This document shows, one piece after another, positions 12,708 through 63,560 of a stretch of 64,000 nt of DNA. The stretch's first letter is position 1. Each line of letters starts with the position of its first letter. The stretch comes from Escherichia phage P896. Location: the sequence record OL451225.1; one strand, 5' to 3'. The notes beneath the pieces were generated by a model. It saw only the letters and a list, made by a program, of their open reading frames with translations, was not told the origin of the DNA and made no database searches. The translations under genes and the position numbers were made by a program.

Positions 12708-12758
12708 CCGTAGAACCATTATACAGTGTTATAAATAAAAGCATAATCGGTTCTACGG
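12708..12758 (+). promoter_or_regulatory. long-loop hairpin enclosing a late promoter (18-19 intergenic)
   Basis: 10-bp stem CCGTAGAACC/GGTTCTACGG with a 31-nt loop containing TATAAATA (12730-12737). Confidence 0.5.
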
Positions 12759-12816: not shown

Positions 12817-12824
12817 TATAAATA
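12817..12824 (+). promoter_or_regulatory. late promoter TATAAATA proximal to gene 19
   Basis: Exact TATAAATA about 50 nt upstream of the gene 19 ATG. Confidence 0.6.
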
Positions 12825-27930: not shown

Positions 27931-27957
27931 ATTATACAGCCATAAAATTAAAGCATT
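27931..27957 (-). promoter_or_regulatory. MotA-dependent middle promoter upstream of uvsY
   Basis: Minus strand ATGCTTTA (MotA box), 12 bp, TATAAT, then the conserved GGTTCTAGACCC block. Confidence 0.55.
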
Positions 27958-28345
27958 AACCGTTTTGACTTAGCTGAATCCTGATTTGTTCGAGGGTGTC
28001 AGGGTCATCAACAATGCTGAACTGAACCGTTACGATAATGGAGTTATCATCATACATAGGGACAACTGCAACCTGTAGATTGCTTATCCTTGGTTCAAAG
28101 TTCCGCACCGCGGAGACGATGTTGCGTTTAATGGTATCTGTGATTAATGGAGTGATATTCTCAAAAAGCTGATTACTTATATCACATCCAAATTCAGGCA
28201 TAAAAGGCCTTGACCCTTTTCTTGTGGTGATTATTCCCAGAAGGCTGTTCTTAACAGACCTTGCACCGGTTACTTTAGCAACGTCTTTATCCCAACTCAT
28301 TGACAAGTCGGGAGACACATCGCTATACATTTTGTTTATATTCAT
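27956..28345 (-). CDS. 25: baseplate wedge subunit gp25
   Basis: 129 aa; ...NSLLGIITTRKGSRPFMPEFGCDISNQLFEN... recognised as T4 gp25-like. Confidence 0.9.
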   Translation of the reverse strand: MNINKMYSDVSPDLSMSWDKDVAKVTGARSVKNSLLGIITTRKGSRPFMPEFGCDISNQLFENITPLITDTIKRNIVSAVRNFEPRISNLQVAVVPMYDDNSIIVTVQFSIVDDPDTLEQIRIQLSQNG

Positions 28346-28969
28346 TTACATAAACTTAAAGAATTCTTTAAGCCCCTTAATTACATGGACAGAATGCGCT
28401 CCACACTCGCAAGAGATAGGAATAGCCATTTGGACCTGTGGCTTGAGAAGTTCTTCCGTTAGTGCATTTATATCATCGAGGGTAATTGCATTGTACAGGT
28501 CCTCGATTTCGGCTTCATTTAAGTCATCAACAACGATGCGCTCACCGCCTTCCGTGATAATATATTCGATACAACAAGCAATCATTTTTCCTTTATCACC
28601 GTCTTCAAACAGTCCAGGATAACGGAATTTAATTTTAAACGCCCCGAAATCACGAATAACTTCAGACTCATCCACGATGCTTGCGCGACTTATAGTCACA
28701 GGAATATCTTGTTCCTTTCCGCACTCACATACCCATGTATGTTCGACGTTAACAGCTCCGAGACTATTTGCCCAGAGATTAATAAGAAGCAGCTCGGCTT
28801 CCTGTTTGTTTAACCCTTTAGCATCAGTGCATTTATTAAGCAGTTCAATTATTGCAGGTTCCATACGCTTTTCTAATTTTGCCTGAAGCAAATCTTTGTA
28901 TTCGCGCAAGGTAAAAGCCCTACAATTTATAGTTTTATTTTTAATTTGGACAATAAATTCATAAGTCAT
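28346..28969 (-). CDS. 26: baseplate hub subunit gp26
   Basis: Start at MTYEF with AGGAG RBS downstream of the minus-strand late promoter; 207 aa. Confidence 0.8.
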   Translation of the reverse strand: MTYEFIVQIKNKTINCRAFTLREYKDLLQAKLEKRMEPAIIELLNKCTDAKGLNKQEAELLLINLWANSLGAVNVEHTWVCECGKEQDIPVTISRASIVDESEVIRDFGAFKIKFRYPGLFEDGDKGKMIACCIEYIITEGGERIVVDDLNEAEIEDLYNAITLDDINALTEELLKPQVQMAIPISCECGAHSVHVIKGLKEFFKFM

Positions 28970-28986
28970 AATTTGCTCCTTTACTG

Positions 28987-28998
28987 TATTTATAAATA
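28987..28998. promoter_or_regulatory. divergent overlapping late promoters for gp26 (minus) and gp51 (plus)
   Basis: Palindromic TATTTATAAATA gives TATAAATA on both strands (minus 28987-28994, plus 28991-28998). Confidence 0.55.
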
Positions 28999-29022
28999 TC
29001 AATAAAGATAAAAGGGGATTCT

Positions 29023-29775
29023 ATGGCCAATATCGTAAGATGTGAAATGCCAGACGGAGTTCATCGTTTCAAACCGTTTACAGTCGCTGATTACCGTGAT
29101 TTACTGCTTGTGCGAAACGACATGAACAACAAACCCGTCGAAGAACAAAAACAATTATTAGACGAACTGTTGGAAGATTATTTTGGAGAGTATCCGAAAG
29201 CATGGAGACCTTACATATTCCTGAAGGTATTCACTTCCTCTATCGGTAAGACAAAAGTCCCGGTAGCGTTCGAATGTCAAAAATGTAAAAAGACAAAGCA
29301 GACTTTGTTTAATATGAGTCAAGGGCCATTGATAAATCCAACAATGGAAACCGCCGGGATAAAAATACAATTTAAGTTCCCCGAAGTGGAATATAAAGAT
29401 AAGTCGGAGCTTGTTCTAAACACCATCCAGACTGTCGAAGACTCAGAACAAAAGTACAATTGGGAAGACCTTCCTGAAGAAACGAAGATGCAGGTTATCG
29501 ATGCTATTGATATAGAGAGCCTCGAAGAGCTCCTTAAGAAAATGCATTCAGTTTATATCCCATTTACATATGGTTGCTGCGAAAAACACAAAACCGAATA
29601 TACAGACTTGATTGATGTCTTTAAGCTTATCCTTAACCCGGATGAAGTCTTTGTATTTTATCAAATTAACCACTTGCTGGTAAAGAACCAATATACGCTC
29701 GATAGCATCATGCATATGATTCCCATCGAACGAGGTATTGCTTTATCGTTAGTTGAGAAGGACTTGAAGAAATGA
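29023..29775 (+). CDS. 51: baseplate hub assembly catalyst gp51
   Basis: 250 aa; T4 synteny 26-51-27. Confidence 0.8.
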
Positions 29776-30941
29776 CAGCTAAATCTATGCAGCGTGAAGG
29801 CTTTCCTAATATCAGCATACGCCTTTACGAAGATTATGATGCCTGGCTAGAACACCGTTTTGTAGAACTGGCTGCAACATTTACAACCATGACCATGCGC
29901 GATTCTCTTTACGGAAGAAACGAAGGCCTGTTGCAATTCTACGACACAAAGAACTTGCATACAAAAATGAACGGTGAACAAATTATACAAGTCTCCGTTA
30001 AGAATGCTAACTCAGACCGAACCCAATCCAGGATATACGGAAGTAAGCACTTTGCTGTTTCCGTGGATTCAAAGGGTGATAACATAATTACAATTCAGCT
30101 GGCACCGATTCATGAAATTGAAGACCTGAAATTTAGTCGTATGTTTTATCCGAGTGTGCAAGAAACATTAGTAGAAATGACTGGGGTAATTTATCAGGAC
30201 AGACCTTTGCTTGCTCCTCCGATAAACGGTATAAACGTTTATGCTCCTAATGTTCCGTGGTGTGATTCGATGAGCCAGTATATGGAATTCATCAGGGAAG
30301 TTGGTCTTGCGGTTGAATCTGATAAATTTGTATTTGTATGGCAGGATATCGACGGTATAAGTATCCAGGATTATGAATGGTTAACTAAACAAGAACCAAT
30401 TAATTTCGTGGTAGGAGAACCTCGATTGGTTGGTCAGTTTGTACAAAACCTCGATACTCCATTGGCCTTCGATTTCGAATGGTTAACAAAGGCAAACCAA
30501 CACACAAGAAAACCATACGAAAACGCAACCGTGTATGCGCATTCATTCCTTGATAAGAACGCAACCAGAATAACTTTTGGGGAAGGACAAAACAGCATTC
30601 TGGTATCTCGTTCTGGTGGCTATTCGGATTATACATATCGAAATGGTTTCGAGGAAGCACAGCGATTAATAACCATGTCACAATATGACGGTTACGCGCA
30701 TTGCAAAACATACGGGAACTTTGAATTAACTCCGGGCGATAAGATAAATTTCTATGACCCGAAGAACCAATTCAAATATGATTTTTACGTAGACGAAGTT
30801 ATTCATGAAGTGAGTAACAATACATCAATTACAAACCTCTATATGTTTACCAATGGTAAGCCTATCGAAGTTGAAGAACCACCGAAGGTTAAAAATGAAC
30901 TTAAAACTGATTCTGCCGACGAAGAAAATACAGCTGGGTGA
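29772..30941 (+). CDS. 27: baseplate hub subunit gp27
   Basis: 389 aa; ATGA overlap with gene 51; T4 synteny. Confidence 0.9.
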
Positions 30942-62351: not shown

Positions 62352-63020
62352 TCAAAGTGCTTGAAGCGTTATTTGACAGTTTTTAACGGTCTCGATGAAC
62401 AATTTACGAGCTTCAAGAGAATCGATATTTAAGATTTTCTTATAGGCATTTAGTTTGGTTGAATACTTTTCCCAAACCAAGTCGTTAGTCTGTTCATCAT
62501 GTTTATTTATAATATCTAAAAATGAATCAAGCAAACAAAACGTTTCAAATGAGATAACATTCGATTGGAGAAGTTTGAAAATATAACTTGTGTTTACTTT
62601 AGTATTATACTCGAAAATCTCTTGAAGCGATTTGACTTCGACTTTCTTACTGAAGTAATAGATATTCTTTATATCATCTTCGTATACTTGTCTAATTCTT
62701 TTAAGTCTGCCAATGTATTCTCTATAAAATATCAGAGCATCGGCATCACTTATATCGCCTATCCATGCATCCTGGTTTGCAACCAGGTTTGACATGAATA
62801 TTAACGTTAATTCTTTAAGAGTGTACTTATCACTAAGCTTTTCGAAAAAATACTTATCGCGGCGTTTTTGATAAGCACTATCGGAGATTCGCATGGTCCA
62901 GTTATATTTGATAATATCATAACGACCCGAAAAATGCTGTTTGATGGATAAGTACAGTTGATATACTGATTTACCATTTATATATCGGTTGTTATTTGGA
63001 GGCATGCGAATCGTAATCAT
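62352..63020 (-). CDS. 59: helicase loader gp59
   Basis: 222 aa; ...YINGKSVYQLYLSIKQHFSGRYDIIKYNW...AWIGDISDADALIFYREYIGRL recognised as T4 gp59-like. Confidence 0.9.
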   Translation of the reverse strand: MITIRMPPNNNRYINGKSVYQLYLSIKQHFSGRYDIIKYNWTMRISDSAYQKRRDKYFFEKLSDKYTLKELTLIFMSNLVANQDAWIGDISDADALIFYREYIGRLKRIRQVYEDDIKNIYYFSKKVEVKSLQEIFEYNTKVNTSYIFKLLQSNVISFETFCLLDSFLDIINKHDEQTNDLVWEKYSTKLNAYKKILNIDSLEARKLFIETVKNCQITLQAL

Positions 63021-63310
63021 AACAAAAAGTCCAGCGTATTAGTTTTCTGTGTACGAGACATACTCGGACGAAGCAGGTTATCATCATATGCTTCATTCAT
63101 AATCTTATCGACGATTCCCGCAGGGATATATCGAGCAAAATTACCTTCGGGAATTCCACGTTCTTCCAACCAGGCAGTCGCAGCTTCCAGATAAGACATT
63201 TCAGTTGTCTCGACCATGGCTTCAATATCAAGCCCGTTTTGCTGCTTACTAATCGCCCCGGAAGGCGATTCAGTTTTCTGTGTATCAAAATTAACTAAAG
63301 AGGACATCAT
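63017..63310 (-). CDS. 33: late transcription accessory protein gp33
   Basis: Start at MMSSLVNFDTQ just after the dsbA stop (the track ORF extends upstream into dsbA in another frame); position 59-33-dsbA. Confidence 0.7.
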   Translation of the reverse strand: MMSSLVNFDTQKTESPSGAISKQQNGLDIEAMVETTEMSYLEAATAWLEERGIPEGNFARYIPAGIVDKIMNEAYDDNLLRPSMSRTQKTNTLDFLL

Positions 63311-63560
63311 AGAGCTCCACAGCTTCGGTTTTTTCATCTTCAAAACGCTCACGAGTACCTTTATGATACAGACCGAGCTGTGTATTGAACATCTTACCGT
63401 CAACGCCTAATTCAGTTTTTGCCTTATCTTTAAGGTCTTTAATTTCGTCTGCATATGCTTCCATTTTTAATTTGGTATCGGAAGCAGCTTTAATCAGCTT
63501 GGCCAGTTCAGCACCATGAGTATCAGGACAAAATTCAACTTTCACTTTTTTCTCTTTCAT
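63291..63560 (-). CDS. dsbA: DsbA, dsDNA-binding late transcription protein
   Basis: 89 aa; position between rnh and 33 as in T4. Confidence 0.8.
   Translation of the reverse strand: MKEKKVKVEFCPDTHGAELAKLIKAASDTKLKMEAYADEIKDLKDKAKTELGVDGKMFNTQLGLYHKGTRERFEDEKTEAVELYDVLFS

Follow-up and report, generated by a model that had tools for sequence, protein, structure and literature searches.

The question raised by this locus is whether a 12-bp palindrome lying between two divergently oriented baseplate hub genes acts as a pair of late promoters that point away from each other and hold base pairs in common. The window, i.e., the whole 64,000-nucleotide stretch of Escherichia phage P896 DNA (OL451225.1) that was analyzed, comes from a T4-like phage that belongs with SP18 and VR7 (Gaprivervirus, Tevenvirinae), and the locus is 98.7% identical to that of Shigella phage SP18, its closest relative. 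As the earlier note had proposed, the palindrome supplies one exact copy of the octamer TATAAATA on each strand; the two copies are offset by 4 bp and have the central TATA in common, and the 12-mer itself lies exactly at 28987-28998, in the context ...ctgTATTTATAAATAtca... / ...ctttactgTATTTATAAATAtcaataaag... No inverted repeat extending past the 12-mer was found around it. The core elements are as follows:

28987..28998, no strand assigned: 12-bp perfect palindrome TATTTATAAATA, the core common to both putative promoters
28991..28998, plus strand: putative P51 late-promoter octamer TATAAATA, -13 to -6 (consensus and position from Nolan 2006 and Geiduschek & Kassavetis 2010)
28987..28994, minus strand: putative P26 late-promoter octamer TATAAATA, -13 to -6 on the minus strand

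The genes on either side are the expected ones. Both flanking open reading frames match the Pfam family PF12322 (T4_baseplate) and are syntenic with the annotated gp26 and gp51 of SP18, VR7, and T4, which bears out the assignment of divergent hub genes 26 (minus strand) and 51 (plus strand), and the good ribosome binding sites at the right distance that had been claimed for them are present as well, AAGGAG standing 6 nt ahead of the gene 26 ATG and the G run of AAGGGGA ending 5 nt ahead of the gene 51 ATG:

28346..28969, minus strand: gene 26, baseplate hub subunit/chaperone, 207 aa, ATG at 28969-28967 (PF12322, phrog_150, synteny)
28976..28981, minus strand: Shine-Dalgarno (SD) sequence of gene 26, AAGGAG
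29012..29018, plus strand: SD sequence of gene 51, AAGGGGA
29023..29775, plus strand: gene 51, baseplate hub assembly protein, 250 aa (PF12322, phrog_150, synteny)
27956..28345, minus strand: gene 25 (baseplate wedge), directly downstream of 26
29772..30941, plus strand: gene 27 (hub), next after 51 in the rightward unit

The TTG start listed for gene 26 at 29002 is an over-extension, and the start codon of gene 25 is uncertain, the SP18 annotation giving a shorter protein of 124 aa. The gp51 of the window is 100% identical to that of SP18. The two hub proteins are paralogues: gp26 and gp51 have PF12322 and phrog_150 in common, and BLASTP aligns 181 aa of them in register, starting at residue 17, with 24% identity (E = 1e-8). 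The palindrome thus forms the axis of a mirror-image gene pair. The same paralogues stand in tandem (51>26>25) in phages Lw1 and KP15 (loci L023 and L024), where no octamer lies upstream of 51.

A T4 late promoter has no element other than an 8-bp box, which lies about one helical turn ahead of the start, and such promoters give transcripts of either polarity (Geiduschek & Kassavetis 2010); the octamer occupies -13 to -6 (Nolan 2006). Numbered in this way, exact TATAAATA falls at -13 to -6 at both sites, and for P26 and P51 alike the predicted start is an A some 6 nt past the box, followed by a short leader and, just downstream, a late gene:

28981, minus strand: predicted +1 for gene 26, A, with a 12-nt leader whose 5' end is the SD sequence (-13 to -6 rule)
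29004, plus strand: predicted +1 of the gene 51 transcript, A, with a 19-nt leader (-13 to -6 rule, Nolan 2006)

The two predicted starts are separated by 23 bp. P26 and P51 resemble T4-type late promoters in having the TATAAATA box, no -35 element, A/T-rich DNA downstream, and an A at the start, and they differ in that they hold 4 bp in common, with their upstream halves mutually constrained. The T at -13, elsewhere the least conserved position of the box, is fixed here because it pairs with the A at -10 of the partner promoter. The distance from octamer to ATG is 17 nt for gene 26 and 24 nt for gene 51 in the window, and ranges across phages from 16 to 22 nt and from 15 to 24 nt, respectively, so that all the leaders are very short; the predicted 12-nt leader of gene 26 is at the short end of the range and carries its SD sequence at the extreme 5' end.

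Since there is neither a further exact minus-strand octamer between genes 26 and uvsY nor a further exact plus-strand octamer after 28998 in the window, P26 would probably serve 26-25 and possibly uvsY, and P51 the hub cluster. Leftward transcription would thus proceed from about 28981 through 26 and 25, possibly into uvsY, and rightward transcription from about 29004 through 51, 27, 28, and the remaining hub cluster. In T-even phages, a split RBS has been described in the 26-25 intercistronic region, which implies a polycistronic mRNA; gene 25 is probably cotranscribed with 26 from P26. The enzyme is expected to be host RNA polymerase with gp55 and gp33, activated by the gp45 sliding clamp, for which the octamer would be the sole DNA element needed. 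The window encodes one of these trans-acting components; the genes for gp55, gp45, and gp44/62 are found in SP18, outside the region that the window covers:

63017..63310, minus strand: gene 33, late-transcription coactivator, trans-acting (PF16805, E = 1e-25)

How far does the window itself argue for a functional site? Exact octamers are overrepresented 4.7-fold (20 observed versus 4.29 expected, a count that 0 of 100 shuffles reached), and one-mismatch octamers are at background (92 among 112 matches in all, where a total of about 101 is expected). Many of the exact copies lie 14 to 30 nt ahead of long open reading frames with an SD sequence, as expected of a motif that the genome uses ahead of its late genes. 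Two plus-strand copies, at 12730-12737 and 12817-12824, are separated by 87 bp; the second has an ATG 1 nt downstream, which could not be translated from the transcript of that promoter, so its target must be further on.

One copy of the exact 12-mer is present, where dinucleotide-preserving shuffles predict 0.01 per window. That the palindrome arose by chance in AT-rich intergenic DNA is nonetheless less remote than this unconditional figure suggests, since with 20 octamers present the probability that at least one of them is preceded by TATT is about 0.15 (our own arithmetic, with T and A at about 29.5% each), and the 12-mer with flanking SD sequences is also found at many unrelated viral loci. 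TATT directly precedes none of the 18 remaining exact octamers in the window, so the left half of the 12-mer is not a generic upstream element. Taken alone, the statistics of the single window are suggestive and only moderately convincing, given that probability of about 0.15, and it is conservation across genera that marks the palindrome as nonrandom.

To follow the junction across phages, annotated phage records were combined with 62 IMG/VR loci obtained with an 18-sequence gp51 alignment (a scan of viral contigs with a single gp51 protein had given close relatives only and was superseded), yielding 49 distinct upstream sequences from Tevenvirinae, Twarogvirinae, Muldoonvirus, Krischvirus, Aeromonas phages, Pseudotevenvirus, and Slopekvirus. 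Among the 43 distinct junctions in which 26 and 51 are divergent, a set whose gp51 identity goes down to about 40%, 38 have the exact 12-mer, and its carriers comprise Tequatrovirus, Mosigvirus, Dhakavirus, Gaprivervirus, Moonvirus, Karamvirus, Winklervirus, Muldoonvirus, phages of Klebsiella, Serratia, and Yersinia, and Acinetobacter Twarogvirinae. Two further divergent junctions, those of Aeromonas phages Riv-10 and 25 (L020 and L021), have a compressed 10-bp palindrome, TATTTAAATA, upstream of gene 51, which gives TTTAAATA on each strand; as this pair is offset by 2 bp, its predicted starts have a spacing of 21 bp, against 23 for the 12-mer. The other three, RB49/JSE-type Krischvirus and locus L057, keep the plus-strand octamer only. 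Where the genes are colinear (54>51>26>25, in Pseudotevenvirus and Slopekvirus), the octamer is missing before 51 in all six cases and a terminator-like hairpin is found instead, so that the palindrome tracks the divergent gene arrangement.

Conservation by column, calculated from 36 distinct 72-mers anchored on the palindrome, drops to 0.1 to 0.4 bits in the bases that adjoin the 12-mer, and the boundary is therefore sharp. In the same 36 sequences, an A at the predicted +1 is found in 97% of junctions on the P51 side and in 86% on the P26 side (as a T on the plus strand). With the 12-mer kept while its flanks drift, and the +1 A kept on either side, both halves are under purifying selection, which two promoters account for and one promoter does not. 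The invariance of an orthologous 12-mer across subfamilies also effectively refutes a chance origin, which we regard as very improbable. The palindrome can serve as an annotation anchor, for instance where start codons have been misplaced. In phage IME08 (L008, HM071924), the annotated starts of gp26 and gp51 overlap by 22 nt across the palindrome (968-1019); the SD-preceded ATGs give a normal 51-nt intergenic region containing the 12-mer, and the annotated starts thus look wrong.

The exceptions among the divergent junctions bear on an alternative explanation, namely, that only one octamer works, most likely that of P51 at the head of the long hub cluster, and that the opposite match is incidental or weakly used while 26 is transcribed from elsewhere. 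Retention of the plus-strand octamer only, in Krischvirus and L057, is in line with it, as is the very short leader that gene 26 would have. Other possible sources of gene 26 transcripts can also be pointed to: the RB49 record AJ489481 annotates a minus-strand sigma-70 -35/-10 pair inside gene 51 (L025, 962-988), and the window contains a sigma-70-like match at 29046..29018 on the minus strand (10/12: TTCACA, 17-nt spacer, TAGAAT). Such matches are, however, not above chance (10 found, 13 expected), and this one is not conserved in T4 by eye. The four outer bases that belong to P26 alone (TATT on the plus strand) are unchanged in 38 of the 43 divergent junctions while adjacent bases vary, although TATT stands before no other octamer of the window; the minus-strand +1 A is kept in 86% of junctions; and the Aeromonas phages have altered the sequence and yet retained its two-fold symmetry. 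We therefore consider a single working promoter quite improbable for this junction, with the qualification that P26 is not universal, there being no exact minus-strand octamer in Krischvirus and one other lineage.

Some details of these lineages are worth recording. Krischvirus (L019, L025, and L067-L069) has ATTTTATAAATA in a longer intergenic region of 70 nt, and a few bases upstream its minus strand may offer ACTAAATA. In L057 the sequence is CATTTATAAATA, by which P26 would have a G at -6. The sigma-70-like site of the window (29018-29046, minus strand) falls within the opening codons of gene 51, directed toward gene 26, and the RB49 annotation gives a hint that 26/25 may have a pre-late promoter in certain lineages.

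A second explanation takes the palindromy itself as the object of selection, the dyad being kept mainly as a site for a dimeric DNA-binding protein, either DsbA or an unknown regulator. The symmetry of the site is perfect, and the window encodes DsbA, which has been reported on A/T-rich sites that overlap two late promoters:

63291..63545, minus strand: dsbA, dsDNA-binding protein (PF11126)

Against this, each half of the dyad is an exact late-promoter consensus, which already explains the conservation, and the Aeromonas dyad is 2 bp shorter with the TAAATA core kept on each strand, a change that suits promoters better than an operator of fixed spacing. DsbA is furthermore a weak binder (micromolar Kd), is nonessential, and is without effect in an in vitro late-transcription system, according to the review that describes its sites. 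A protein operator as the main reason for the dyad is accordingly improbable in our view. As the sequence is palindromic, a structural element (a cruciform, a hairpin, or a bidirectional terminator) can be considered too; it has no spacer, no G+C, and no T-run, and neither predicted leader is more stably folded than shuffled sequences (z = -1.36 and +0.64), which leaves this explanation with next to no probability. Folding excluded a hairpin or cruciform, the best DNA fold having -2 kcal/mol (z = -0.74).

The reading that we favor, overlapping divergent late promoters of the gp55 type for 26 and 51, is the one that the earlier note had put forward, and it is upheld by the invariance of the 12-mer, by the conserved +1 A, by the lack of the octamer at colinear junctions, and by identity with T4, in whose genome (NC_000866) the very same 12-mer separates 26 from 51 at 116450-116461. 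We put the probability that the palindrome is the orthologue of the overlapping gp55-type late promoters P26/P51 of T4 at about 0.85, and it is almost certainly the same promoter pair as that described between the T4 genes. The T4 and window junctions agree in TATTTATAAATA, in the divergent 26/51 arrangement, in the neighborhood (uvsY-25-26 <-> 51-27-28), and in similar start-codon spacing; they differ in genus (Tequatrovirus for T4, Gaprivervirus for the window, with a window gp51 about 52% identical to that of the T4 group) and in the octamer-to-ATG gaps, which are 21 and 17 nt in T4 and 17 and 24 nt in the window.

Overlapping promoters for divergent transcription of the base plate gene cluster of T4 are said to have been described by Scarlato, Storlazzi, Gargano, and Cascino in 1989 (Virology 171:475), who reportedly mapped the 5' ends of both the 26 and the 51 transcripts, which would establish transcription in two directions for T4. 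The arrangement is thus already known from T4, and the window holds its orthologue in a related genus; with the T4 counterpart described decades ago, the finding has little weight as a discovery. The records of NC_000866, AF158101, SP18, and VR7 carry no promoter annotation at the 26/51 junction. The palindrome is of value in other respects: (i) it is a clean natural case of two minimal promoters with common base pairs; (ii) selection on it is unusually sharp, 12 bases being invariant across subfamilies while the adjoining bases are free; and (iii) it lends itself well to testing whether the output ratio of a bidirectional promoter is set by clamp orientation or by competition between polymerases. 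The T4 P26/P51 junction also lies about 1.1 kb from oriF (ori-uvsY) (115321 versus 116450 in NC_000866), and a review of T4 replication places active origins near sites where transcription switches strand.

What the overlap would mean for transcription can be considered from the geometry of the site. The upstream halves of the octamers are in common, -13 to -10 of one promoter pairing with -10 to -13 of the other, while the outer halves, -9 to -6, would be private to each, and the predicted melted regions of P26 and P51 would meet at the dyad center. In the activated complex, gp45 sits at the upstream end and lengthens the DNase I footprint by 13 bp. With starts 23 bp apart and footprints of at least 50 bp, the two complexes would cover nearly the same DNA, and only one could be accommodated per DNA copy. 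As to the competition between the 26 and 51 complexes that had been envisaged, mutual exclusion follows from this geometry, i.e., from the 23-bp spacing and footprints of at least 50 bp; that competition balances or couples the outputs of P26 and P51 is plausible but speculative.

Bidirectional promoters built from symmetric -10 elements are established for sigma-70 (Warman et al.; bioRxiv 2020.01.31.928960; NAR 2026 gkag028) and provide a point of comparison. Like them, the present site has overlapping -10-type elements on opposite strands (a 4-bp overlap), of which one binding event would bar the other, with predicted starts 23 bp apart, within the 7 to 25 bp of that class and among its enriched spacings (29, 23, 18, 12, 10, and 7). 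On the other hand, gp55, which is without region 4, would act here on an exact 8-bp box, and late promoters use a DNA-tracking clamp whose orientation sets the direction that can be activated. The reciprocal +1/-18 stimulation of sigma-70 promoters has no obvious application to P26/P51. We use the sigma-70 class as a working analogy and claim no membership of it, recognition being expected by gp55. In E. coli, the two directions of a bidirectional promoter are seen to compete only if one of them is under strong activation; at T4 late promoters, the clamp gives several hundred-fold activation.

The clamp raises one further prospect. Clamp-activated late transcription requires a DNA break in the nontranscribed strand, and P26 and P51 should therefore respond to clamps of opposite orientation. 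It is conceivable, although we hold it to be unlikely, that the exact two-fold symmetry acts as a direction switch read by the clamp, beyond the packing of two promoters into one site. Which of the two exclusive promoters fires on a given DNA copy would then depend on the direction of replication or on which strand is nicked, and the mirror-image paralogues would go back to an inverted duplication in which gene and promoter were copied together. If this were so, the ratio of the gp26 and gp51 chaperones, together with the downstream genes, would be tied to replication polarity near oriF, and the back-to-back 12-mers in the uncultivated phages of L109, L164, and L125 would point to a general device.

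The same 12-mer is found at other viral loci. A scan of IMG/VR for the palindrome flanked by an SD sequence on each side gave 96 sites, and among the 80 loci listed, 23 are 26/51 junctions and 57 lie elsewhere, so the sequence alone is not diagnostic and cannot be used as a stand-alone signature. Other uncultivated phages may, to judge from these matches, use the same back-to-back late promoter. Examples outside the 26/51 junction among L091-L170 are L109 (5577), L164 (1588), L125 (5751), L099 (7964), and L096 (10157). The flanks of these 12-mers vary, and some of the contigs have extra exact copies of TATAAATA. In L109 and L164, the 12-mer lies between two divergent genes of the tail-tube family (phrog_45), and in L125 it lies by a virion structural protein (phrog_12050); other gene pairs that recur around it are a 97-aa protein (phrog_18771, holin-like) with one of 70 aa and a protein of about 119 aa with one of 75 aa.
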